DNA from: Macrostomum lignano
Lineage: Eukaryota
Direction of reading: 5' to 3'
NCBI GenBank assembly: GCA_002269645.1
Contig: NIVC01000864.1
Span: 248,001 to 312,000 of the forward strand
Length of the DNA: 64,000 nucleotides
Every line of letters starts with the position of its first letter. Positions within the stretch are counted from its first letter, which is position 1. This document shows positions 21,356-56,364 of the stretch, piece after piece. The notes beneath the pieces are model-generated. The model did no database searches, was not told the DNA's origin, and was given only the letters and a program-made list of their open reading frames with translations. A program made the translations under genes and the position numbers.

Positions 21356-21660
21356 GCTCAGGACTACGAGGTCTGCCTGCAGCTGCACAATTTTCTGCTG
21401 GCCACTCTGCAGCGCCTCGGCTTTGAGATCAACTGGGCCAAGACTCAGAGCCCAGCCACTTCGGTCACTTTCCTGGGTATGCAGATCGACACATTGACTT
21501 GAGAAGATAGACGGCCTTCGAGAACTTCTCCAGGACTGCGCCAAGTCAAAGAGCCTGCAAAAACCGAACTGGTTCTGCAAAGTTGCCAAACCCACAAAGG
21601 CCCTGCTCCGCGCGCTGCTGGAGATAACCATCGCTATTCCTGAGCAGCATCATCGAGACC
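21356..21660 (+). mobile_element. DIRS/Ngaro-type reverse transcriptase fragment
   Basis: LLATLQRLGFEINWAKTQSPATSVTFLGMQIDT, then LQK.NWFCKVAKPTKALLRALL, matching DIRS/Ngaro RT domains 6-7 and the following helix. Confidence 0.75.
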
Positions 21661-21714
21661 AAATTGATCAGGTTATTGATCAGGACCAAGGCCTCATGCT
21701 CTCTTCCTCATGAA

Positions 21715-33233: not shown

Positions 33234-34518
33234 GTCCTGCAGCAGTATGGGATTCTGTATGCTCAATGAGGTCCTGCAGCAGTATGGGATTCTGCATGCT
33301 CCATGAGGTCCTGCAGCAGTATGGGATTCTGTATGCTCCATGAGGTCCTGCAGCAGTATGGGATTCTGTATGCTCCATGAGGTCCTGCAGCAGTATGGGA
33401 TTCTGTATGCTCCATGAGGTCTTGCAGCAGTATGGGATTCTGTATGCTCCATGAGGTCCTGCAGCAGTATGGGATTCTGTATGCTCCATGAGGTCTTGCA
33501 GCAGTATGGGATTCTGTATGCTCCATGAGGTCCTGCAGCAGTATGGGATTCTGTATGCTCCATGAGGTCTTGCAGCAGTATGGGATTCTGTATGCTCCAT
33601 GAGGTCCTGCAGCAGTATGGGATTCTGTATGCTTCATGAGGTCCTGCAGCAGTATGGGATTCTGTATGCTTCATGAGGTCCTGCAGCAGTATGGGATTCT
33701 GTATGCTCCATGAGGTCTTGCAGCAGTATGGGATTCTGTATGCTCCATGAGGTCTTGCAGCAGTATGGGATTCTGTATGCTCCATGAGGTCCTGCAGCAG
33801 TATGGGATTTTGTATGCTCCATGAGGTCCTGCAGCAGTATGGGATTCTGTATGCTCCATGAGGTCCTGCAGCAGTATGGGATTCTGTATGCTCCATGAGG
33901 TCCTGCAGCAGTATGGGATTCTGTATGCTTCATGAGGTCCTGCAGCAGTATGGGATTCTGTATGCTCCATGAGGTCCTGCAGCAGTATGGGATTCTGTAT
34001 GCTCTATGAGGTCCTGCAGCAGTATGGGATTCTGCATGCTCCATGAGGTCCTGCAGCAGTATGGGATTCTGCATGCTCCATGAGGTCCTGCAGCAGTATG
34101 GGATTCTGTATGCTCCATGAGGTCCTGCAGCAGTATGGGATTCTGTATGCTCCATGAGGTCCTGCAGCAGTATGGGATTCTGCATGCTCCATGAGGTCCT
34201 GCAGCAGTATGGGATTCTGCATGCTCCATGAGGTCCTGCAGCAGTATGGGATTCTGCATGCTCCATGAGGTCCTGCAGCAGTATGGGATTCTGTATGCTC
34301 CATGAGGTCTTGCAGCAGTATGGGATTCTGCATGCTCCATGAGGTCTTGCAGCAGTATGGGATTCTGTATGCTCCATGAGGTCCTGCAGCAGTATGAAAT
34401 TCTGCATGCTCCATGAGGTCCTGCAGCAGTATGGGATTCTGCATGCTCCATGAGGTCCTGCAGCAGTATGGGATTCTGCATGCTCCATGGGGTCCTGCAG
34501 CAGTATGGGATTCTGCAT
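33234..34518 (-). repeat. 37-bp minisatellite, about 35 copies, inverted relative to 21715-22508
   Basis: Reverse complement of the same unit, with a degenerate tail to ~34595. Confidence 0.97.
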
Positions 34519-35481
34519 TCTCTCTGCAGGTCCTGCCGCAGTATGGAATTCTGCATGCACCATGGGATTCTGCATCAACCGTGGGTTTCTGCATCATAAG
34601 ATTCTGAACAATTAGATTGGGAGCACAAGAATTTCCCGCACACTGTAATTCCTAAAGGTCCGAAGAAGGGTCCGGGAAAGGTCCATTGTGGAGGGTCCGG
34701 AGCGTCGAAATAACGGACCATGAAAGGTCCGTATTTTGATGGGTCCGTATTGTAAAGTCCGTATTGCAAGGTCCGTATTTTGAAAGGTCCGTATTTTGAA
34801 AGGTCCCTATTGCAAAGTCCATATTTTTCAGATGTCCGCATTATGGGTCCGAAATATAAAAACGATTACACCCCAAAATGTATTCACTTGATCTGCAAGA
34901 CACAAAATACCCACTATTATAGGTATGAATTTTATGAATTTCCTTACCTGTAAAATTGTTCCCAATTACATTATGTGAGGCATACAATGTTGTCAGTCAT
35001 TGCTCAATTTAAGAAAAGTAAGAAGTGAAGCATTCGTAATCAACAATTGCATGTTTATGAAGGATGTTAACCAATTTAAAGTATTTTTTATGGTATATAA
35101 AGATTGATCCTAAAATATTTATTGTTGTAGTACAAAAACAGTGGTAATAATAATATTTAGTAATTATTTGTTGCACATTACACATTGCGAATAAGTGTTT
35201 GCTTTGGTCACTCAAAGAGTGAAGTTGAATATACAGACTAAAAAGCACAAACTAAATACACAGGGCAATAAATAAGCAGCCAACATCGCCGTGACCCTCT
35301 GATGACAGATAACACTCTATGATTATGATTGTGAATATGAAAATAAATATTGTGATTGTGATTAGGCTTGTGATTACGATTAATTCACAGTCATATTCAA
35401 TCGTACTAACATGAAAATGAATATAATTATTATAAAAATGAAAATGATTACAATAGTCATGTCTAGGCGTTATAAAATCAT

Positions 35482-42112: not shown

Positions 42113-44189
42113 ATGAGGCTAAAAAACGTCAGCACAATCTTCATGACTTTTCTGGCTGCTTTTTGCATCCAGCTCGATGCGTCAAGCAAACTGCATCTCG
42201 CTGATGACGGCTACTATAACGACTTGCTAGTCTTTGTGCAAATATCTGCAGACGGCAACGTGCATGACAAGCAGCTGGATTCGAGGCAAGTTCCCTTTGA
42301 CCTGCGGTATCCGGTGGAATTCGACGTCAGCGCTCGCAGCAACCTCGTTTTCTCGCTGTTTCTGCCAAGCGATCCCGCCAAGGTTGGCTCTCTGCGCCTC
42401 ATGCTTCGGTCGCCGAGCGGTAGGACTTTCAATTGCTCTGGTGGCAGCAGCGCCATTTGCACAGTCGATGCTGCAGTCGGATCCGTGACGGTGCAAATTC
42501 CTGACGCTGAGGTAGAGGTGAGTTTAGCCAAATACGTGCATTGTGAGCCAATGTTCTCGCTTGCTGGAGGGGTTACTTTACGACGGCAAAAGTAGAACGC
42601 AGAAGAAAGTGAAATATTAACAGCTACTGTAACAGTGTGTTGCACTCAAACTGACTTTTAACATTCACTACAATTTAAATATGCTTTTTCAGGAGCAGAT
42701 AAGCCAAAAATAGAAATAATTATTAGGGCAGATAATTACTAAGACTAAGACTATTAAACTTTTAGGCTTAAACCAATAGAAATCGCCTTGCCTCAAACCC
42801 GCCACTCCAACAGAGCGGAAAGTGGACGCTGGCGAACCTCGCAGTCGGTCTCTCTCGCCGGATTCGCAGACAGGCGGCCTCAAACATGCATGTAGTTATC
42901 ACTGGAAACCCGTATCACTTTTTTCCTAAAAATTCTATCATTAAAGTGAAACCAAACAAAGTGAAAATGGTCAAGTATGATACTTCAATCAGTGTTGTCG
43001 TGCATCTATTACCAAGACCCCTAACTCGGCATCAGCTGTACGCAGATGTCAAATCGGGCAACACAGAAGTGGCTCGATTTTGTCTACTCGAACAACACGG
43101 CAGTGAGTTAAGACTAAACATTTAATAGCTCGATTTAAATGTTAGTCTCAAACACCGCATATATCCCACATTTGCTTCGTACAGATTCTGGAACATTTAT
43201 TGCCAAGGTACCTCTCTATGCAGTACAGAAAGCTGGCCAGTATCATGTCAATGTGCATATCACGCACCCCTACTCATCTGAACGGTCTGCCGGCACTTTG
43301 ACTGTTCAGGCGGAGGACCCCAACTTTGACAGACGTCGTATTGTGCCTGAAACAGTTACGGGGATCTATAAAAGTAACTTGAATAACGCTAGCAAAAAAT
43401 TTGAGATCAAATGGAATCCAGTCGAAGATCCGTCTGGTCTACTCACGCCTAAAGCAGGTAGGTGTAACGCTTGCAGCAGCTCTGCTGAATGTTGAAATAC
43501 AAGCTGAAATATGAATTGTGCAGAAATTTTGTTCAAGCCACTAAGTTACCAAATACACAATCCGGTTCAAAGAGTAAACAGTTTCTCAAATATCTGCTGC
43601 ACAGCCGTCATGCAAATTTCACTGACTCTGACGCTTATGAGCATTCAAATTACCTCCAACAGAAGTGCCTCTCTACAGCATTCGCTACGAAAAATCAGGG
43701 GACAGCTGCACCACTTCAAAGGGCCGTAGCTATTACTTCTGTCCGGAACTGGCTGTCACCAACCAATCTTCGGCGAACATCTACAACCAGTATATAGCTC
43801 TGAATGAGCCTCTAATGCGGGTATCAGTGATTGCCATTTCCGCTGCAAACGTGTCCAGTTTTTCTAGCAAATATTTGCATATTCATGCCAGGACGATATC
43901 GGATTATCTGCCGGTCGATGTTGACAAAAAGCAATGGTGCGGACTCAACACTACGACGAGCACATCGACCCCGCACAACTCTCTCGACCCGACAGTAACG
44001 CAAAGTTTAACGAATGACCCGAACAAGGCCAAGTCAACAGTCGACTCCACGACCAAGTCGTCGCCACGAAACTCGACGCAGGCGAAATCGTCGGCTCAAC
44101 TAAATGTGGATTTGTCGTGGCTCAGTGCGGGAACCGTCTGCTCTCTGGCTGTCCTCACGGTATCCGCACAGCAGTGGCTGATCCAGTGA
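42113..44189 (+). CDS. CLCA-like copy D: apparently intact 4-exon, 497-aa mini-CLCA lacking the hydrolase, Cys-rich and VWA domains
   Basis: Exons 42113-42517, 42814-43102, 43185-43457 and 43663-44189 sum to 1494 nt with matching phases and GT/AG sites. Signal peptide, FnIII-like exon, S/T stalk and GPI-signal-like C-terminus. Confidence 0.78.
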
Positions 44190-44624
44190 GCTCGCAGTTC
44201 CAGTCAGCAGCGATACGGGAGATGCCTTGCCGGCTCTGGGCTTGGAAACTCGCTGAATAAAGACTCCCCGTAATATCATTTTGGCAATTAGCTTTGAATT
44301 CCTCCTCCAGAAAATGCTCTTTCCGTTCCTCTGCTCGGATTTTTCAGAGACTGACGCAAATTATTAGAGTAAAAAGTACCAATAGGAAGTAGATAAACTG
44401 TATCCCGCCCCTGTTTACCCTGTGATTTACGATTATCTGTACTGAAATTAAACCTCACGCCTGACCCACCATTCATTCAATGCATTCAATCCGCTCTTAA
44501 TTAATCATAATTCCTAAGCCAACCGAGTCAGAGTGTATACTGTACTATACTAAATATTTTTATGTATTTGTACATGGTTGACAAGCGCTCAGAATGATAA
44601 AAGTACAAATACATTATTCCCTCA

Positions 44625-46050
44625 CGAAGATCCTGCAGAGTCACAAGAGCTCCTTCTGACACGACCTCTTCATGCTCCAGCTGCAGGTGCACGGCGTCAC
44701 TTGGAGGGTCTTGGGCAGCAAAACTCAGGCGAGACAAGGCATCTGCATCTACCATCAGTCTTCCCGGCACATGCTCCACCTCGTAGTCAAAAGCAGATAG
44801 CCGCAGGACCCAGCGAGTTAGTCTTGCCGACACTGTTTTAGGGAGATTTTTGCTGGGATTAAAGATGTACTTCAGTGGCTCGTGTTCAGTCTGGAGCGTG
44901 AACCTCTTCCCCAGAAGCATCTCGCGAGCTCGCTCCACCGCCCAGACAATCGCCAGCGCCTCCCTCTCAATGTTGGAGTAGTTGGCTAGTAGCGTTGGAG
45001 TAATGTTGGAGTAGTAGTACTTGTAGGTGGAGTGATCTGGCTTACCGAGAGCTCTGTCGAGACCTCGCGCTCGAGGAATTTGCTCCGGTCCTCCTGGTTG
45101 CCGAGGCCGGCGATGAGACGCATTTTGATCAGCTGCTTAGCTGGATCAACAATATCGCCCTTCAGCTTCTCGAATTCGCAGACCACCGCCTGCTCTCGAA
45201 GTCGGGCAGCGAAGCCGGCTACTGTCTTGCCCTCTCCTTGGCGCATGGACATGAAAGCCGCTCGCTCGCCAATCTGCAGCCTCTTATTGGGTTCCAGAAA
45301 CCGCACGAGGCACTCCTTGATTTCCGCCCACTTCATCTGCGAGAGCGGTTTGGGCGCGACCAGCTGCTTCACTTTGATGAGCTGTGCCACGCCAATGCAG
45401 CCAAGGAAGGCATCGGTCAACGCCAGATTGCCGGCTGTGTCATCAGTGCGATCGGTGTCCTTCACTCTTTTTGACCGCGCCTGGGCGTCAAAGACTTTGG
45501 TCCATGCCTGCAACTCCTCAATGCTGTTTAGGGGCAACGGGTCCCGTAGCTTTATGGACATCCGATGATCCTGCTTGCGACGCCAAAATGTTAGAATGAA
45601 CAAGTCGGTAGCCGATAGATTGCGAGGCGAGAAAACGAACGTGCCAAGTGCACCGTCCAACATCGTCGGACTCCTACTCCGGGTGGCCTGAGGCGATCCA
45701 GGTGCCAGACCGAACTGCGGAAAGTGTCCTGTCCTGCGGGTTATGAGAGCGGTGTTCGCCAGGAACGGTGTGCCTCGGACGCTAGTGTCGGACAATGCGC
45801 CGGAGTTCAAGTCAGAGAAAATGTCCCAGTGGCTGCGCAGCATCGGGTGCCAGGATCTGCACACTCCGCCGTACCATCCGGCTTCGAACGGTCAGGCAGA
45901 AAGGCTAGTGAGGATCATCAAGGATGGACTCAAGGCGTGAACGAAAATGGTGCCGTTCGACCACTTCCTAAAATGTTAGAATGAACAAGTGGGTAGCCGA
46001 TAGATTGCGAGGCGAGACAACGAACGTGCCAAGCGCACCGTCCAACATCG
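44625..46050 (-). mobile_element. Scrambled Gypsy (Mag-like) LTR-retrotransposon remnant
   Basis: RNase H NYSNIEREALAI..ADALSRL (44625-44990, -); gag (45000-45568, -); PBS TGGCGTCGCAAGCAGGA (tRNA-Ser-like, ~45571-45587); LTR end duplicated at ~45588-45662 and ~45974-46050; integrase core SDNAPEF/HPASNGQAER on the + strand (~45730-45945). Confidence 0.85.
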
Positions 46051-47139: not shown

Positions 47140-48582
47140 CGTTGAACTTTAGTATGACATTTTTATCCGCTTCATGCGTCCGGCCAGATTTTTAAGAGTG
47201 GACCAGATCCTGGGCTCGTAGCCGTTCTCAAGGAGGAATTTGTTCCAGCGGTCCCGTCTCTCCGCTTCCAGGCTCGAGTTGATTTGCGCTTGTAGGTCCG
47301 CAATACTAGGGTCCGACGGGTTTAAGTCCAAGTGGCGGCAGGTTCGCATTGGAGTACCGCAGGGCAGCGCCATCAGCCCGCTCCTTTTCGCCTTTTATCT
47401 GGCTAAGGCTCCTGTGCACATCAATCCGACTACTAAGCTAATCGGCTACGCTGACGATCTTACCGTTGCCGCCTCGTCCCCAAGCTGCAATTCCATTGAA
47501 CAACAACTGGATCACTATCTCGCTGAACTCGCTCCGTTCCTCGAGTCGCGCAAGCTCCAGAGTTCTACATCAAAGTGTACGGCCACTCTGTTCAGTCCAG
47601 ACCAGCGCGAATACTTCTGCCAGCTTAATGTCTTCATCAACGGCTCTCCACTGCCACAGGCCGTCCATCCAAAAACTCTGGGCGTGACCTTCGACCCAAA
47701 CTCTCCTTTGCGAGACACGTCTCCATCTTTGCGGAGAAAACCCAGAAAAGAAATAGCCTGCTACGCTGCCTCGCCGGCTCATCGTGCTGCTGTTGCAAGG
47801 AACTTTTGCTGACACCTTTAAAGCTCTTGGCAGAAGTCTGCTCGACTACGCTGCGCCGGTCTGGGGCCCATCATCTCGAACTCGTCCTGGACTCGGCTTC
47901 AATCGGTCCAGAATGCAGCAATTCGCAGCATCACCGGCTGCACAGCCCTTACCTCTGAAGTGAATCTACACAGTGAAGTTCAGTTGCTTACCGTCCGCCA
48001 ACACAACCGGCTCCTTTCGCTCCAGTTCAAGCACCGCACCAGACGCCCGGAACATTCATGCCACCATCTTTCCTGTCTCCCACCTCTGCGTAGACTCATG
48101 AAAGCCTCCATCTTCACTGCTGAGCATTTTAACGCCGATTGGGTGCCGGTTCCAGCCCCGGATGTCCTTGACGCTGGCTGCAGCCTGGTATCGCGCCAAG
48201 AGGGCCCAACCCACGCAGCCAGTACAGGCCATGCTGGACAGTTTTCCACCGAACCGCGTCATTCGTGCACAACGACCTAAAATTCACCGCTCCAAAGTTC
48301 GCCTCCCCCGCCGTGTGCGGTGCACGCTGGCGCAGCTTCGCTCCGGTTTCTTCCCGCTTCTTCGCGACTTTCAGTCGAGGATCAACCCTGGCGTCGCCGC
48401 GGTTCGTCCTGCTTGCGGCGGCCTTGAGCCCCAAACGGTGGCCCACCTCTTCAACTGCCCTGCGCCTATCTGACGCAGCTTTGTCCGAGTGACTTATGGA
48501 CTAACCCGATCGAGACGTGCACCTTTCTGGAGTCAGCCGCCCTCGGCGGGCTGGGACCCCGGTCGTAGGTTAACACACACAC
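47140..48582 (+). mobile_element. I-group-like LINE, copy 1, 5'-truncated with an inverted 5' segment and (CA)n tail
   Basis: GVPQGSAISPLLF, YADDLTV and RCTLAQLRSG..C..HLFNCP. Segment 47140-47325 is inverted. Tail taacacacacac. Confidence 0.88.
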
Positions 48583-48619
48583 GTCTCAAAGGTCAAGCTT
48601 CAACCGGCGGTCATCGTCA

Positions 48620-49950
48620 GCTATCTGAGACTAAGACCGCAGCGATCATTTTCACCAGCAGGACCAAGTGGCAGATTCGGCCGCTCACGCTTTACGGAAG
48701 GGAAATCCCCTTCTGCAAGCAGACTAAATGTATTACTCTGGACCACAAGCTGAACTGGTCACCCCACGTTTAAGCAAAAGCTAAAGAAGGTCCTCGCAGT
48801 CCTCGCGCAACTTCGCAGGGCTGTCGGCACCACCTGGGGGCTCACCCCCAAGCGCTTCTGGTGGATCTACACTGCAATGGTTAGGCCTGCTATCTCGTAT
48901 GGCGGCCTAATCTGGGCTAGCACCCTGCAGATGAAGACCTGTCTAGAGGCCCTTAGGAGAGCGCAAGGGCACGCATGTCGCACGATCATGAGCGCCCCTC
49001 CGTCTGCTCCATACGATGGCCTCAACGCCTTCCTCAACATTCTTCCGCTGGACATCTTTGTCCGCAAGGAAGCGGCTAAGACTGCCCGCCGTCTAATTGA
49101 CACTGGCATTCGTATCCTGCCCCATAGGACCATGGCTAAGCGCAAGCTCCTGCCCCACGCCGACCTCTGCCTCAAAGACTTAAGAGACGGCGGCGGGCTC
49201 CACGTCTTATCTGACGGTGAACCCCGCACTCTCAACCTCTTTCAGCGCTACAAGGTCACCATCCCCTCTAGGGATGCTGCCAATGACCACAGGAATTTCC
49301 AGGAGGGCCATTGCTACACGGACGGATCCATCAAAGACGGCCGCGCCGGCTTTGGGGTCTGCATCATCATCAACGGCCGCTTCATTGCCACGCATGCTCA
49401 GCACACTAGCAGACTCTCCACGGTCTTCCAGAACGAAGTCCTTGCTATCAGCTCTTGCGCTGCAGAGCTGAACGCAAAGGGTACGAGAGGAGAGACTATT
49501 GTCATCCACTCCGATAGCCAGGCCCTTTGCTACACCACAACGAACTCCCGGACAGTTGCCGACTGCGTCCGGCATCTCAACCTCCTGGCCAGTAGCAATA
49601 CTGTCAGGCTGAAGTGGATCCCAGGGCACGCAGGGTTTCCGGGGAACGAGCTGGCGGACACCATCGTCAAGAGGGGCGGCTCTGGCTCTTTCTTTGGCCC
49701 TGCCCCCTTGGTCCCTATGCCCTCGACAGTCATCAATCGTCAGATCACCCAAAACTGCCGGCAATCCCGTGCCGCGGTTCCTCGCCCGTCTCGCAGGCTC
49801 AGAAACGTTCTTCTGAACCAAAATCGGAAGGATATTCGAGCCCTTGTCGTGACCCTTACCGGCCATGTCTACCTCGCCAGACACTCCTTCCTCCGAGGCG
49901 ACCTCGAGAGCGAACTTTGCCCTTTTTGCGAGTACGACAATGAAGATGCT
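48620..49950 (+). mobile_element. R1/Loa-like LINE RT-end and RNase H fragment
   Basis: VRPAISYGGLIW, YTDGS, VFQNEVLAI, HSDSQA, WIPGHAG..GNELAD and CPFC. Paralogue of 1399-2600. Confidence 0.88.
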
Positions 49951-52274
49951 CTGCTCAGCTCAGCACTCTTATTCTCTCCCTCCAATCTCTCCCCATCTCT
50001 GTCAAGGACTACTCAAGTAACATATACTCGTATATGGGACGCTACACTCGAACTCTATGGTAAATGTCGCCGAAAACTACACTACAGAGATAGGAGGTTT
50101 CAATTTTTTCATCACAAAAATTGTTATTGCTTTTGATAGGAGAAAGACCCAATGTTCATCTTTCGATATGTTGTGCCTTCCTTATAGCTCTATTGAGATT
50201 CATAAAGCTTATTTATTTATAGTGTATTTTTCGGCGAAAAGCCTCTGACTTTTCTGCAGCTCAAAAGAGCGCCGTTTCTAATTTCATTTGACCTGCCTGA
50301 TGAGATACCAAATTTGCTGCAAAGGCAAGCAAAGTACGCTGTGGTCTATCGAGGAGACAGGTGGTTTGCCACTGAGCCAGGAAGCCATCTTGCTCACTTG
50401 TATGACGGTTGCCAATTGGGCAACTACAAGCTTGAAGAGCGGAAGAGCAAACCAAAAATCTGCATTTGGAACATTATCCTCACCTATGAGAACAACACGG
50501 GCTTTTTCTACATTGACCACTGTTGTATCCCTGCAGCCCCCGGCCCGGCAGTAGGGTGGTCCTACAGGGTACAGTACAATCGGGTCCTTGCTAAGCCTGC
50601 GCGCGGGCGCTAGGGCGAGCACTTCCCCTGACAGTCTCGGGCGTCAGGACGCTCCCACGCAGCCTTTCCACGCGTCGGGACGCAGTGGTGCGGGCCGCCT
50701 TCAGCGAGGCGTTGGGACGCACTGGCTGGCGTAGAGGCGTAGAGGCGTACGGTAGGTATCCTACTGCCGTATCAACCCCAACTAGCTGAGTCGGCGTCCG
50801 GACACACGGACTCTCTGCCCCCCTAGGCAACCGAAAGAAAGAAGACAGGACGCGCACTTACTTAGTTGGCAGCTGTCGCTCAGGGCTCAGGAAGATGGCC
50901 TTCTTTGGTGTATTTCTTTATCAAAGGGGGTCTGTATAACTTGGGCTGTAGATAGCTCTGACAAAAACTGAATTCACAGAGAGGGAACAGTCGAGACGCG
51001 CACCGCTCCAACCCGCCGCGAGCGATGTTAAATAGCACACGCCCGCGGAGGGGGGAGGGCCATGCGCTCTCAACTCCACCACCCCACCAACCCCCCAGCC
51101 AACCCCCCCCCCCGGGGACGGCCACCAAGCCCGCCGCCGGCTCAGCCAATCACTACGCGACTGGCTGGCCGCGACCAATCGCCACGCGGGGCGAGCAAAC
51201 AAATGCCAAAACTTAAGCCTCTGGCTGCGGCAACGCAAAAAGGGGGTGAATAACAAAAACTGTAAACAACTAGTTGAGGGGTGACTCAGCCCGCTGGGGC
51301 TAGGTGCACAGGCACCGCAGAAGTGCACAACACAACACCCCGCCTCCCAACAAAAGGAAGAAGCTCATACGAGCCAGTAACGCTGATTACAGAAACAAAT
51401 GACAACGAATGACACCACAGCTGCACAACCTGCACCGCACATGGGCAAGGGGTTCAAAGCCTGCTTGACCTACATGACTGAAACCACGCGTACATGAAAT
51501 AAAACAAACAGATGAACCAATGATGACAAAAGAAATTAACGTTTGATGCCGCAAAAATTTGACCATTGACGACGCAACAAGATTTATGGAATTCCGACAC
51601 CAATGATTTCACGATGAACGACGCAAAAGGGTTTAATGATAAAGGATCAGAGCTAGTCACCGATCTCCACCGCACCGTCCCTCTGCACATCCCTGCCGAG
51701 TCGGCTGCCCTTTCTCGTCCCTGCGCCGTTGACTCTCGACACCTGGCCTGGGTCCGGGGTTCCCGCGCCGGCGTCGGTGTAACCAGATTTCAAGCTTCTG
51801 TCCGGTGACCGCTTGGCGTCCGCTGGAACCCGTTTGGCCTGGGACTATCAGCTCAGTGGAGCACGCCGCTGCTGCTCACCCGGCCGCCGCTATGGCTGCC
51901 CATTCTGGACGGCCAAGTGCTCGCCAGCCGTGCACCTCCCGCCTCCAGTCTCCCGGCTGCCTCTCTACCTAACCCTCATACCACCCGTACGGTAACCCAT
52001 CCGCATACGACTAATCCGAAAAATACGATACACCCAACCCCCGCACCAGGGACAGGGAAACGAACAACCGGACACGCCCGACAGGGCCTGCACCCCCAGC
52101 CCAACCCACACTCACACCCTACTAGCACTCGCACGCCACCACTCGAGCACAACAGCGCAGCAGCGCCTGGACCTGGCCCGCACCTAGCAGCTCGAACCGA
52201 GGGATCACCACCTTCCGCATCACTCGAGCTGCTCGCTTTAAACATTCGCGTTTCCAACCGCTCCGACGACCGCG

Positions 52275-53104
52275 TCAATTGGACCACGTCACTGAAATGT
52301 CCCGGCGCAGAAACTTGAGCACTTGAAGTGTCACCGCCGTCAGATAACGCCTCGGCTCTTCTCGCCGCACCCTAAACAGGTCAGCCAACTCCTCAAACAC
52401 GTTCACGATCTCTTCCTCCTCGCCCTTCAGCAATGCCGTTCTCAGACTCCGGTGCAGCTCCACAAATCTCGTTGTGCTCGGTAGCGGTAGCTCCTCCATC
52501 TCGACTGTCGTCGCCCCGACCGGTACCAGCTTCCAAGCCTCGACATCCGGCAGGTCCTCCCCGTCTGTCTCCATCTCTCCGACCTGGTCTGTTTCGTCGT
52601 CGCTGATAATGATGCAGTAGCCGCTGTCTGGCGCATAGCTTCGCTCGAATGACTGACGAAAACCCTGCTCCTCGGCCTCCCAGCCGGGCGGCCGACTTCC
52701 GTCGCTGACGACCGACTCACTGTCGGTATCCCCGGGTTCGTCGTCTCCACGGAAGGCGTCCGCATCCGACTGCTCGTCCTCACTCGGCATGTCCTCATCT
52801 TCCAGCCTGATCGCTTCCAGGATGTCCTCTGGCACGGGAATGTCTGACGGGGGTTGAACCTGTCTAGCCAACTCTACCGCCGCGCTGAACGAGATTGACG
52901 AATCACCGTACATGTCATACAACCACCGCCGAAATGGGCAACCGAGAATTTCATACGCGACGTTGAGGGCTTTGCATTTCTCTTCTGCGAATGCCCGGTC
53001 CGGGTGCTTGTCCGGGTGATACTTCAGGGCTTGCCGCCGATAGGCTCTCTTGATTGCAGTTGCCTCCACCCCTGGTCGATCTCCAGTTCGTCGTACAAGG
53101 ACAT
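52275..53104 (-). CDS. J-domain (DnaJ/Hsp40-type) protein, ORF3 of the Gypsy element; 1-nt frameshift in a G-run near codon 12
   Basis: MSLYDELEIDQG/VEATAIKRAYRRQALKYHPDKHPDRAFAEEKCKALNVAYEILGCPFRRWLYDMYG with HPD intact. Acidic linker and helical C-terminus; no introns. Confidence 0.85.
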
Positions 53105-53339
53105 CTATGGAGTGCCGTTTCTTGCCGTTAAAATCGCATTTTCCGCTACTAAACCTGGTCCGTGTGCCTGCCGACTCATCCACCCGCTACAACCACCTAA
53201 CCGCCGACAACCCCCAACCCGTTCAGAACCTCAGCCGATCCGGCGGTCGCCTGTGCCGAGTCGGATATCTCCTGGTGGTTAGAGTCTCCGCTGCGGCCGC
53301 TTCTAGTCCTTCCCATTCTTCTGGTGGATCAGGTCCTTC

Positions 53340-55393
53340 TCATTCTTCCGGCAGGCCACTTTGAGGCGACTCCGAGCTTCTCACGCTACCACCGACCTCG
53401 TTCTCCAGTCCTTGCTCGACCTCCGCTGGTGGTGGTCGACCACGTCGGCCTACCTGCTCAGCTTCCTCCTCTTCATCTTCTTGGCTCTGCACGTCCTCTG
53501 TCACCGCACCTCCTTCCTCCTGGCTCGCTTCGTTCGCCGCTGACCTCGACTTCTTAAAAGGCGACAGGTTGTTGAAATGTACTCTTTTGGTCTTCCTTGG
53601 ATTAGCCGGATTCTGAACTTCGTACACGGTCTCGGAAATCTTCCGCACCACTTCAACTGGTCCCTTCCAATCGACCCGGAACTTGTTCCACGTACTTTCC
53701 TGTCGTAATAGTCTTTCTGCAACTTCTGGTATGTGCCGGTCGCTTGTCGCACTGCTTCATGTGCTTGATGGAGGTGCTTTCTCAAGCCGGCCACGTACAT
53801 TGACTCGTCCAGCGGCTCTTGTGGTGCTTTGTAAGCTACATCCAGTGGTAATCGCATCTCTTGGCCGTGCAGGAGGAAGTACGGTGTGTAGCCAGTGCCG
53901 CGATGCACACTTGAACGGTACGCCATCAAGGCTGAGTCGATTAGTTCATCCCATTTGTGTGACTCTGCTCCCTCAGCGATGTAGCTTCGCAGTACTGACT
54001 TCAACGTCTGATTGAACTTCTCCACCTGCCCATTTCCACTTGGATGGTAGGCCGTGGTTCTGGTTTTCTGGATTTTCAGAAGCGTGCACAGCTCTCGCAT
54101 TACTCGAGACTCGAAGTTCCGCTCTTGGTCACTGTGAATCGAACTCGGGCAACCGTAGATACTAACCCAGTGCCCAAATATAGCGCGCGCGCCTGTTGAT
54201 GCTCGTTGGTTGCGGATTGGGATCGCTGCCGGCCATTTAGTGAACGCATCCTGCAGCGTTAAGATGTACTGATGACCTCTGGCACTCCTTGGCAACGGCC
54301 CGACAATGTCCACCATCACTCTCTCAAAAGGTTCGCCCGTTCGAATCGGCTCCAGTGGAGCTCTAGCCTTCTTCGCCAACTTCGAGCGGCCGCAGACTTC
54401 GCAGCTCCTTACGCACTCGGCGATCTCGCGGCTGATCCCGGGTCTCCAGAACCGTGCAAGGACCTTTCGCTTTGTTTTCTGCAGGCCGAAATGGCCGCCC
54501 GCCACGCCACTATGACAGTCGATCACAATCCTCTGCAGCAGACACTGTGGTAGCACAATCTGGTCCGCGCCTTTCCACCTCCGCACCAATATTCCGCCGT
54601 CCACCTTGAGCAGCTCGCACTGCGCCATGAGCGCTCTGCCCCCTGGGGTCCATCTCAGCTTCTCGCTCACGCTCTCATTTCCGCTGACCAGCTCTTTCAT
54701 CCATCGAATCTCGTCTTCCGCGTCCTGCGCTTTTACCAGTTCATGTCGCTCGTCAGCCACATTCAGCGCACTCACACCATTTGAGATCACTGGTGCAAAA
54801 TCTGAGCAGGATGGACATTCTAGGAAGCCTGCATGTCGCCGGGTCTGCCGTCTTGACAACGAATCCGCATTTCCATGACAGAGCCCGCTGCGATGCACCA
54901 CGTAGTAGTCGAATTCTGCCAGCTTCTCCAGCCACCTAGCACACTGACCTTCCGGATCCTTCAGATTGTGAATCCACTTCAAGTTGCTGTGATCCGTTCG
55001 CAAGCAAAATCTTCTTCCAGCCAGATAGTACCGATACTTGACCATGAACGTCACCACTGCCAGCAGCTCTACTCTGGTCGTGCAATAGTTCCGCTCTGCC
55101 GATGACAACGATCTTGAGCCATACGCGATAACCTTCTCACTTCCGTCCACTTGCTTCTGAGACAACACGGCGCCAACGCCAATAGATGAGCTCGCATCCG
55201 TGTCGAGAATGAACTCGCCGGCCTCGGGTCCAAAATCCGGAAACGCCATCACGTCTGTACTCGTCAGCCGCGCTTTCAAGTCCCGGAACGATCGCTCTTC
55301 GTCCGGTCCCCACTCAAACTCGACACCTTTGCGAGTCAACCTGAGCAGCGGCTCGGCAACACTCGAGAAGTATTTGATAAATCGGCGATAATA
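53340..55393 (-). pseudogene. Gypsy pol (RT end, RNase H, integrase zinc finger, core and C-terminus)
   Basis: YYRRFIK, ILDTDAS, RNYCTT..ELLAV, TDHSNL, NADSLSR, H..HFG..C..C, VDIVGPLP, HSDQERNFES, YHPSGNGQVE. Small deletion and frameshift at ~53690 before WKGP. Confidence 0.95.
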
Positions 55394-56362
55394 CTTCGGG
55401 TGTGTCATAAGTAATGTCACTGATGTGAAAACAGACGAACTTGCAATCGCAGATGAACAAAACTGTACCACTCAACAATATAGAGTCCCCCAATATCAAT
55501 CACCCTCTGGCGGTGCTCATACAGCTTGTCCACCTCAGCCTGCAGGTGTTTTTCCTCCAACTGCCATAACCAGTGCAACGCAGCCTGTTTTACCTCTTCA
55601 TGGTTTGCGAAACTCTTCTTGGAAAAGTCAGCCTTCAGCCATTTGAACAGGAATCTCTTGCAAAAGTTGAAGTCTGGGCTGTAGGGACTGTCAGAGCAGA
55701 TTCACTCGCCGCACAGGCAGAAAATTCGAAACAGCCTTCAGATGTGCAGCCGTGCGGTGTCCATCTGCCACAGAACTTCGTCCCGGTGACATGGATTTGA
55801 CCGGAGAGTGCGCCAGAGGTCTCCAGTGTGCCGGACAAAGTCGATAAAATACTGGCCATCGACCTTGATGTTCGGTGGAGTTGTGCAGATGGAGACTCGT
55901 TTGTTTGGCGTGAAGGCTACCAGCAGCATGGTCTTCTTGTCCAAGATGGACTTCCTAGTCACCATCGGCCTGGAGTCCCCAGCTCCCAGCCAGCAGCGAT
56001 TGTCTGCCTTGCTGCCCTTGCCATCCAGGTGGAGCCAGCTTTCATCCTCAGCAACCAGGCAGTTTAGGATGTCATTCAAGCCCCGGCTGCTAAACACCTT
56101 GCGGATCTGCTTGGTGCAGGCGTCATGTCGAGATTCATGATGATTTTTGTTCGCTGCATAGACGGTTTTTCATCGCGTTGCACTTGCTAAATCTGCTTGG
56201 CGTATTCTTGCGATAGCTTGGGCCATAAACAACCTATGCACGTCTCAAATGCACTGCTATTGCTTCACTAAGTATACTTTGCAGCTACACTACCCACAAG
56301 TCCATGTGCCTACATATTTTAGACAGAGGCCTGCAGTGACATTACTTATGACACACCCGAAG
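55394..56362 (-). mobile_element. Internally deleted Tc1/mariner element (969 bp)
   Basis: 29-bp perfect TIRs cttcgggtgtgtcataagtaatgtcactg (55394-55422, 56334-56362), TA on both sides. Transposase remnant LVAEDESW...KKTMLLVAF...QMDTARLH. Confidence 0.9.
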
Positions 56363-56364
56363 TA

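Follow-up and report, generated by a model that had tools for sequence, protein, structure and literature searches.

A DnaJ-domain third gene under purifying selection in a clade of Ty3/Gypsy LTR retrotransposons

The window, by which we mean the whole stretch of 64,000 nucleotides that was analysed, contains a frame encoding a DnaJ domain next to a Gypsy pol, and this raises the question of whether a retrotransposon lineage has made a J-protein its own third gene or has merely captured a host sequence, and what such a gene could do for the element. On the minus strand of the window, we found a Gypsy pol remnant (RNase H and integrase), the J-domain frame (hereafter ORF3), a polypurine tract (PPT), and an 817-nt LTR, with an insert upstream, as listed below.

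55391..56365, no strand assigned: insert of 975 bp with 32-bp terminal inverted repeats, severing the Gypsy element; recognized by its inverted repeats, with no Pfam family at threshold.
53223..55393, minus strand: 3' part of Ty3/Gypsy pol (RNase H, integrase zinc finger, core, and p58-type C-terminus), identified by Pfam and a 94–96% DNA match to a full-length sister.
53105..53106, minus strand: AG immediately 5' of the ORF3 ATG, a predicted splice acceptor from its sequence and from the same layout in the otherwise unalignable leaders of sister families.
52122..53104, minus strand: ORF3 in its natural extent (327 codons in sisters), with a J-domain carrying HPD, a helical extension, an acidic disordered linker, and a basic five-helix domain.
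51338..51348, minus strand: PPT, identified by its sequence and found in the same place in full-length sisters.
50521..51337, minus strand: 3' LTR, 817 nt, TG...CA, 94% identical to the LTR of a full-length sister.

The copy of the element in the window is truncated and dead, a relic. Its pol, which matched RT_RNaseH (5.7e-32), Integrase_H2C2 (8.9e-15), rve (2.5e-8), and Integrase_p58_C (5.1e-9) in Pfam, is missing its 5' part and carries two lesions, a deletion of about 62–64 nt that shifts the frame at 53688/53687 and a premature stop codon at 53342-53340. The first-pass annotation had placed ORF3, co-oriented, between the end of pol and the PPT and LTR, and this was correct as to the RNase H-integrase part, the PPT (51348-51338), and the LTR (51337-50521), but the stop near 53340 that it took as the end of pol is premature, the true one, by the position in sisters, being at 53225-53223, 118 nt ahead of the ORF3 ATG. 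The annotation was right about an ATG at 53104 and about a break of the frame in a G-run, the exact run being 53072-53069, and the frame as assembled is open for just 26 codons from this ATG. No indel was found at the G-run among the sequencing-run rows listed, with which an assembly error and a real break are both compatible. A second break is the early stop at 52277-52275, which had been read as the natural end of the ORF; the frame of the sisters continues to a stop corresponding to 52124-52122 (327 aa). The match to a full-length sister stops at 55393, the edge of the 975-bp insert, which we take to be mariner-like by its motifs. The 5' half of the element was found neither in the window nor in the remaining 2.5 kb left on the contig, and only the 3' LTR is present; the element had been rightly assigned to Ty3/Gypsy, but its copy in the window is the 3' half alone. 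A TATA-like box (51034-51029) and a splice-donor-like site (50861-50856) lie within this LTR, and a scan of it for a heat-shock element (HSE), allowing up to one mismatch, gave none.

A DNA search of the 764-Mb genome with the window copy yielded six full-length matches at 94–100% identity, which constitute family A. The ORF is therefore not single-copy; a single copy was one of four findings named in advance as refuting an ORF3 that belongs to the family, along with near identity to a host DNAJ gene, lack of ORF3 in other members, and neutral decay. Four of the family A sisters were read end to end; they are 8.5–9.0 kb long, with the order PBS, gag, pol, ORF3, and PPT between LTRs that are 98.9–99.8% identical, and the fifth (C615) also has both LTRs. 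The copies on C5015 and C1138 share flanks and hence represent one insertion held twice; the C5015 copy has a 43-nt insertion in pol relative to the window copy. ORF3 was open for 327 codons from the ATG in three of the six family A copies (three of five sister loci) and for 270, 184, and 26 codons in the others. The elements qualify as Ty3/Gypsy in several respects: CCHC knuckles occur in Gag; the pol frames, 1541 and 1573 codons long, encode integrase downstream of RT and RNase H; a PBS follows the 5' LTR and a PPT precedes the 3' LTR; and the sisters have paired TG...CA LTRs with target duplications of 4 bp. The PBS presumably reads tRNA-Lys-like, and placement in the Gmr1/Osvaldo cluster would be our guess.

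ORF3 homologs also lie downstream of pol in other families of one clade, at least seven of them, or at least eight when family A is included. In a protein search, a J match lay downstream of pol at 14 of the 20 loci inspected, the others being five host DNAJ genes and one locus without pol. The families are A, B/B2, C/C2, D/D2, E, G, H, and T, in addition to fragments F (56–59% identical to A), for which an upstream pol was sought and none found. Representatives of B–E were 22–36% identical to A, and HPD was mostly intact across families. Stop-free ORF3 matches amounted to 21 of 22 in family B and 14 of 14 in family C, and 17 family D matches spanned the whole protein without a stop; these counts are lower bounds from a possibly redundant assembly, with genomic context read for some copies. 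In an integrase tree of 27 of the 28 loci (L075, having no integrase match, was left out), six elements without ORF3 were separated from the other 21 at 100/100. The J-domain was absent from 6 of the 21, namely one family D copy with other DNA after pol, one H-like element, and four loci (L099, L100, L104, and L112) that form a subfamily nested in the clade as the sister group of family T and have nothing homologous to ORF3 downstream of pol. This pattern requires four changes; with the root placed at the six ORF3-less elements, these would be a single gain followed by three losses. An RT tree concurred but for L092, which has an unrelated remnant as its pol and was placed with the outgroup. 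The expectation that other members might lack ORF3 thus held for one full-length subfamily of the clade, but not for the other families, which carry ORF3 after pol. The LTRs of the ORF3-less L100 are 98.9% identical, so ORF3 may be dispensable or supplied in trans; the Gag of this subfamily is close to that of family T. Rearranged copies were also observed: the H-like L096 (G000:C109), with LTRs 99.3% identical, has lost the J part of ORF3 and kept its TatD-like end; L097 (G000:C1500) is an apparent recombinant, with gag and RT 93–96% identical to family A, an integrase 65% identical, and a degenerate J remnant; and L073 (G000:C20), of family E, has a 3.35-kb tandem duplication (99.6%) spanning pol and the start of ORF3.

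The ORF3 proteins have a common build of a J-domain, an acidic linker, and a basic five-helix domain. The annotated J-domain was confirmed by Pfam (DnaJ, E 4.9e-14 in the window frame and 1e-12 to 6e-18 in families A–E) and by a predicted model that matched solved J-domains with an rmsd of 1.0–2.5 Å in most top rows. In the model of the natural family A protein, a confident J-domain with a helical extension (about residues 1–110, with a pLDDT of >90 over 1–100) is followed by a disordered acidic linker (118–202) and a confident C-terminal domain; in families A–D, the net charge is −23 to −33 in the linker and +9 to +15 in the last 125 residues. HPDK is invariant in all 10 aligned full or near-full proteins, which are 21–45% identical, and this invariance makes recruitment of host Hsp70 the likely activity of ORF3, whose product is probably a J-protein of class C. 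The HPD motif is lost in family T, where ORF3 is still open, and in helix III a column that is Phe in host J-domains is Cys in family A, Ala in E, and Ser in P0125.

The acidic linker and helical tail had been described as unlike class A/B Hsp40s, and this agrees with our results, since only DnaJ (plus Chromo in family D) passed Pfam and the C-terminus is all-helical; a class A/B Hsp40 was rejected, there being no G/F-rich region, zinc-finger region, or beta-sandwich C-terminal domain. An env-like ORF3 was likewise rejected because none of the six proteins examined has a transmembrane or signal segment (19-residue hydropathy maximum of 1.08–1.49, N-terminal maximum of ≤0.75, and 0–1 sequons). 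Folded alone, the C-terminal domain gave a five-helix bundle with a pLDDT of 90, for which Foldseek returned no match at E 0.001 or better in the PDB or a viral library, and Atlas scores were below 0.9. Several cobalamin-binding cap-domain chains matched it at a VIA Z of 7.0–7.7 (rmsd of 2.3–2.6 Å over 76–80 residues), which is below the level trusted for helical bundles, and Pfam and PDB sequence searches gave this likeness no support. The domain was seen only in element-type proteins, its 63 matches in the genome being element loci wherever inspected. Two kinds of domain are added in particular families. The family D linker contains a chromodomain (L069:7209-7391; Pfam Chromo, 1.4e-12), also present in P0123 and P0269, whose best PDB matches are Swi6, CBX1, CBX5, and HP1 (E 1.8e-10 to 3e-8). 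Its cage, by the positions that we take to form it, is incomplete, with Tyr and Trp kept and Val in the third position, against Phe or Tyr in HP1 and Swi6. Families G, H, and T have an added TatD-like domain, which scored under the Pfam cut-off in T and over it in an H piece.

ORF3 is under purifying selection. Between the A1 and A2 subfamilies, over 327 ungapped codons, dS was 0.12 and dN was 0.030, resulting in an omega of 0.25 (p 3e-6), with 11/9/29 differences by codon position and omega values of 1.45 and 1.11 in the other two frames; in the same comparison, omega was 0.19 for pol and 0.10 for gag at a dS of 0.12–0.13. Neutral decay was thus contradicted and, with the copy number above and the host comparison below, three of the four refuting findings failed outright, indicating a family trait and not a one-off capture. 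Among deeper family pairs for which dS was estimable, omega was 0.06–0.27 for the whole ORF3 and 0.05–0.17 for the J-domain, values that are near saturation and come from trimmed local alignments, which bias omega downward. Two family E pairs were weak (omega 0.43, p 0.07; omega 0.23, p 0.014), and the family D chromodomain had an omega of 0.24. That ORF3 is a host-gene fragment carried passively, with no role for the element, appears very improbable: its loss in one subfamily and its breakage in half of the family A copies are as expected of such cargo, but constraint on par with that of pol, the open frames in families B, C, and D, and the lack of a close host source stand against it, and the deeper-pair values refute it unless the constraint comes from host-side use. 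It is also improbable that the five-helix domain does the work, with a J-domain that has lost the ability to activate Hsp70 and serves as a scaffold or decoy. The open ORF3 of family T without HPD and the replaced helix III Phe in A, E, and P0125 would suit this reading, as would the J-domain alone, which was not significantly constrained between A1 and A2 (omega 0.38, p 0.14, 11 changes), but it is opposed by the invariant HPDK and by the low J-domain omega in the deeper pairs.

To what extent the gene occurs elsewhere, and where it came from, was addressed by a protein search of 1.84 billion representatives. Matches extending past the J-domain were proteins labelled Macrostomum lignano and P0002, P0003, P0123, P0125, and P0126. 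P0002 is at most 46% identical to anything in the genome and P0125 has no match there at E 1e-25, indicating that the ORF3 gene exists outside this assembly; metagenome scans for the pol context of P0002, P0003, P0123, P0125, and P0268 gave nothing. A recent host DNAJ retrocopy, the first-pass annotation's alternative to a gene of the element, was rejected because the ORF3 J-domain is 36–53% identical to the best of 15 non-element J-domains. In 17 J-bearing frames at 16 host loci, the match to the ORF3 profile was confined to positions 2–86, and the sole host J-protein matching into the extension helix, with the lowest score of the set, was that at L088:6263-6814 and L120:2331-2876, a gene that we take to be DNAJC9-like. 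This gene may be regarded as a weak lead to the donor; a J-domain tree did not resolve the donor gene. A record from ENA, P0122 (679 aa), has six tandem J-domains and is unrelated to ORF3 outside the J-domain.

As to how ORF3 would be expressed, an AG lies 0–1 nt ahead of the ATG in seven of the nine representatives having an ATG (A, F, B, B2, D, D2, and E; not C or T), against a background of 0.13–0.20 per site, and the 60 nt upstream of ORF3 average 26% identity between families. At all four G and H loci (L080, L082, L091, and L101), there is no ATG at the expected start, where AG is followed by TG; these families were left out of the count, since their start was placed just after the AG and hence provides no test. 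Because the donor-like sites in the G and H LTRs come after an A, a splice to this acceptor would create an AUG and an N-terminus shared with the other families. A donor-like site was found 140–200 nt past the TATA-like box in six of six LTRs tested, compared with 7–28% of windows, this interval having been chosen post hoc. These features suggest a spliced subgenomic RNA, running from an LTR donor to an acceptor at the start codon, as a candidate source of ORF3; in Drosophila gypsy, the env start codon is made by splicing. No RNA run was listed as covering the window. Contigs from putative RNA runs cover one family A and one family D element, ORF3 included; they contained no joint from the LTR or leader to the ORF3 acceptor, which is neutral either way because contigs drop rare forms. 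An 84-nt splice-like joint in the family D leader was rejected as an intron, as it consists of seven 12-nt repeat units with 14 ambiguous letters. Scans of the LTRs of J-bearing families for an HSE gave no perfect site and one single-mismatch site, in family B. One outgroup Gypsy element, which lacks ORF3, has a perfect three-unit HSE in its LTR (L114:96-108, oriented).

With respect to function, we lean toward the view that the add-ons of the sister families, the HP1-type chromodomain and the TatD-like domain, point to chromatin or silencing over Gag. Our preferred reading, held tentatively and at somewhat less than even confidence, takes the selected third gene of this Ty3/Gypsy clade to encode a class C J-protein whose role would be to direct Hsp70 onto chromatin-bound complexes, thereby keeping the element active. 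The protein would be made from the spliced subgenomic RNA; its basic domain, aided in family D by the chromodomain, may bind DNA, nucleosomes, or silencing proteins; and HPD would then trigger ATP hydrolysis by Hsp70, loosening a repressive complex. Chromatin-bound silencing complexes are favoured as the client because branch D gained and kept an HP1-type reader, because of the acidic linker and basic tail, and because chromatin-tethered J-proteins, SUVH1/3-DNAJ1/2, counter silencing in plants, as described in the available text of PMC10396365. Several findings count against this reading: the chromodomain occurs in branch D alone, is absent from the family of the window, and has Val as its third cage residue; the helix III Phe is replaced and HPD is lost in the families noted above; a subfamily without ORF3 has recent LTRs; and the TatD-like add-on in G, H, and T would suit RNA or cDNA handling equally. 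The HPD loss in family T and the ORF3-less subfamily weigh on every functional reading alike. A more specific version, which is possible and about which we are more doubtful, regards ORF3 as a modular Hsp70-targeting platform, in which a J-domain and a private five-helix domain, with a grafted chromodomain or TatD-like domain, would dismantle heterochromatin silencing complexes, the protein coming from a spliced RNA whose start codon is made at the junction in some families.

Only a little less favoured, though in our view still unlikely, is that ORF3 brings Hsp70 to the element's own nucleoprotein for Gag assembly, uncoating, or disassembly of a post-integration complex, much as auxilin does for clathrin. 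The J-domain and the five-helix domain are the only parts common to all families, and the confinement of the latter to element loci is as expected of a client within the element; even the chromodomain might serve integration targeting, in which the chromodomains of chromoviruses take part. This reading is weakened by the ORF3-less subfamily, which retains a family-T-like Gag and recent LTR pairs, and by the chromodomain being a second, independent add-on that reads more easily as nuclear. More improbable is an action on small-RNA silencing, in which ORF3 would divert Hsp70 from Argonaute/PIWI loading or handle element RNA. A C. elegans J-protein links HSP70 to a specific Argonaute according to the accessible part of PMC11194074, and the TatD-like domain in G, H, and T parallels the DEDDy ORF3s of rotifer elements in that of PMC5408684, but the HP1-type chromodomain would be left unexplained.

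Returning to the preferred reading, Hsp70 directed to chromatin, we compared it with known systems. A J-domain that a mobile genome supplies so that host Hsp70 is led to a particular complex is known from viruses, as in the polyomavirus T antigens and the cellular J-protein inserts of pestiviruses; the likeness is one of design, not drawn from sequence comparison, and those are DNA and RNA viruses, whereas an LTR retrotransposon with a stand-alone ORF3 is concerned here. The host J-protein DNAJC9 is reportedly chromatin-linked. SILENZIO, which silences, binds HSP70 according to the available text of PMC8616336. As in this case and that of SUVH1/3-DNAJ1/2, a reader module could take the J-domain to chromatin, as the J-domain and chromodomain build of family D suggests. 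The systems in the same parts of those sources differ in being encoded by the host, with reader and J-protein as separate chains; family D has both in one element-coded chain, known from its sequence.

Among retrotransposons, the first-pass view that Gypsy third ORFs are normally env-like proved too narrow, in that the Juno/Vesta LTR retrotransposons of bdelloid rotifers have non-env ORF3s (GDSL esterase and DEDDy exonuclease) in the accessible text of PMC5408684. As in the present elements, their third ORF is specific to particular families, lies between pol and the 3' LTR, lacks transmembrane segments, and has been gained and lost along the pol tree; they differ in their cargo, which here is a J-domain co-chaperone with a helical domain ("DnaJ" and "chaperone" do not occur in that text), and in that, for them, no significant deviation from neutrality was seen within genomes, in contrast to the clear selection on ORF3 here. 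Plant LTR retrotransposons with additional sense ORFs (PMC7264820) and an orchid Ty3/Gypsy element with an AlkB-type demethylase ORF (PMC12786077) similarly carry, in the portions available, an additional conserved ORF downstream of pol, which a spliced RNA sometimes encodes; that of the orchid counters host control. Unlike the present case, neither of these portions mentions DnaJ, and a chaperone role of plant env-like proteins is a proposal there. Heat-responsive LTR retrotransposons of Macrostomum lignano, likely the host of the present elements too, are linked to heat shock via HSEs in their LTRs (PMC12801592, in part), which distinguishes them from the J-bearing families, whose scanned LTRs have no perfect HSE; DnaJ, Hsp40, and ORF3 are absent from its main text, and in the portion of its supplements available DnaJ occurs solely on transcript-cluster rows. 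A search of the openly accessible literature for DnaJ or J-domain in Gypsy, LTR, or retroelements gave no relevant report among the titles listed. The J-domain third gene appears to be a new type of cargo in an arrangement, the extra ORF after pol, that is already known. The extra genes of LTR retrotransposons mark the host steps that limit such elements, and a J-domain that selection has maintained in at least eight families and that has homologs beyond the assembly indicates that access to Hsp70 matters to these elements, with the independent gain of an HP1-type chromodomain tying this need to chromatin. An element-coded reagent makes it directly testable whether chaperones help or hinder retrotransposition and, if the host is the transgenic model flatworm, localisation, interactor, and knock-down studies are feasible.

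The remainder of the window contains other repeats and frames. Two frames at 56352-57592 (plus strand) have no Pfam match and, by motifs, presumably represent a broken transposase of the P-element/THAP9 type. A second, unrelated Gypsy remnant lies at 44528-45891 (minus strand; a gag-like frame, with RT_RNaseH at 4e-17), and broken pieces of non-LTR retrotransposons, with RVT_1 and RNase H matches, lie at 47222-50136 (plus strand) and 58935-60450 (minus strand). The ORFs at 43641-44189 (plus strand) and 62096-62701 (minus strand) are related Ser/Thr-rich frames with a hydrophobic tail, and a Pfam scan of one gave none at the cut-off. Inverted arrays of 37-nt units at 21566-22642 and 33086-34535, about 11 kb apart, are 96% complementary, and 26225-27917 is duplicated at 62379-64000, 36 kb away, with 94–99% identity.
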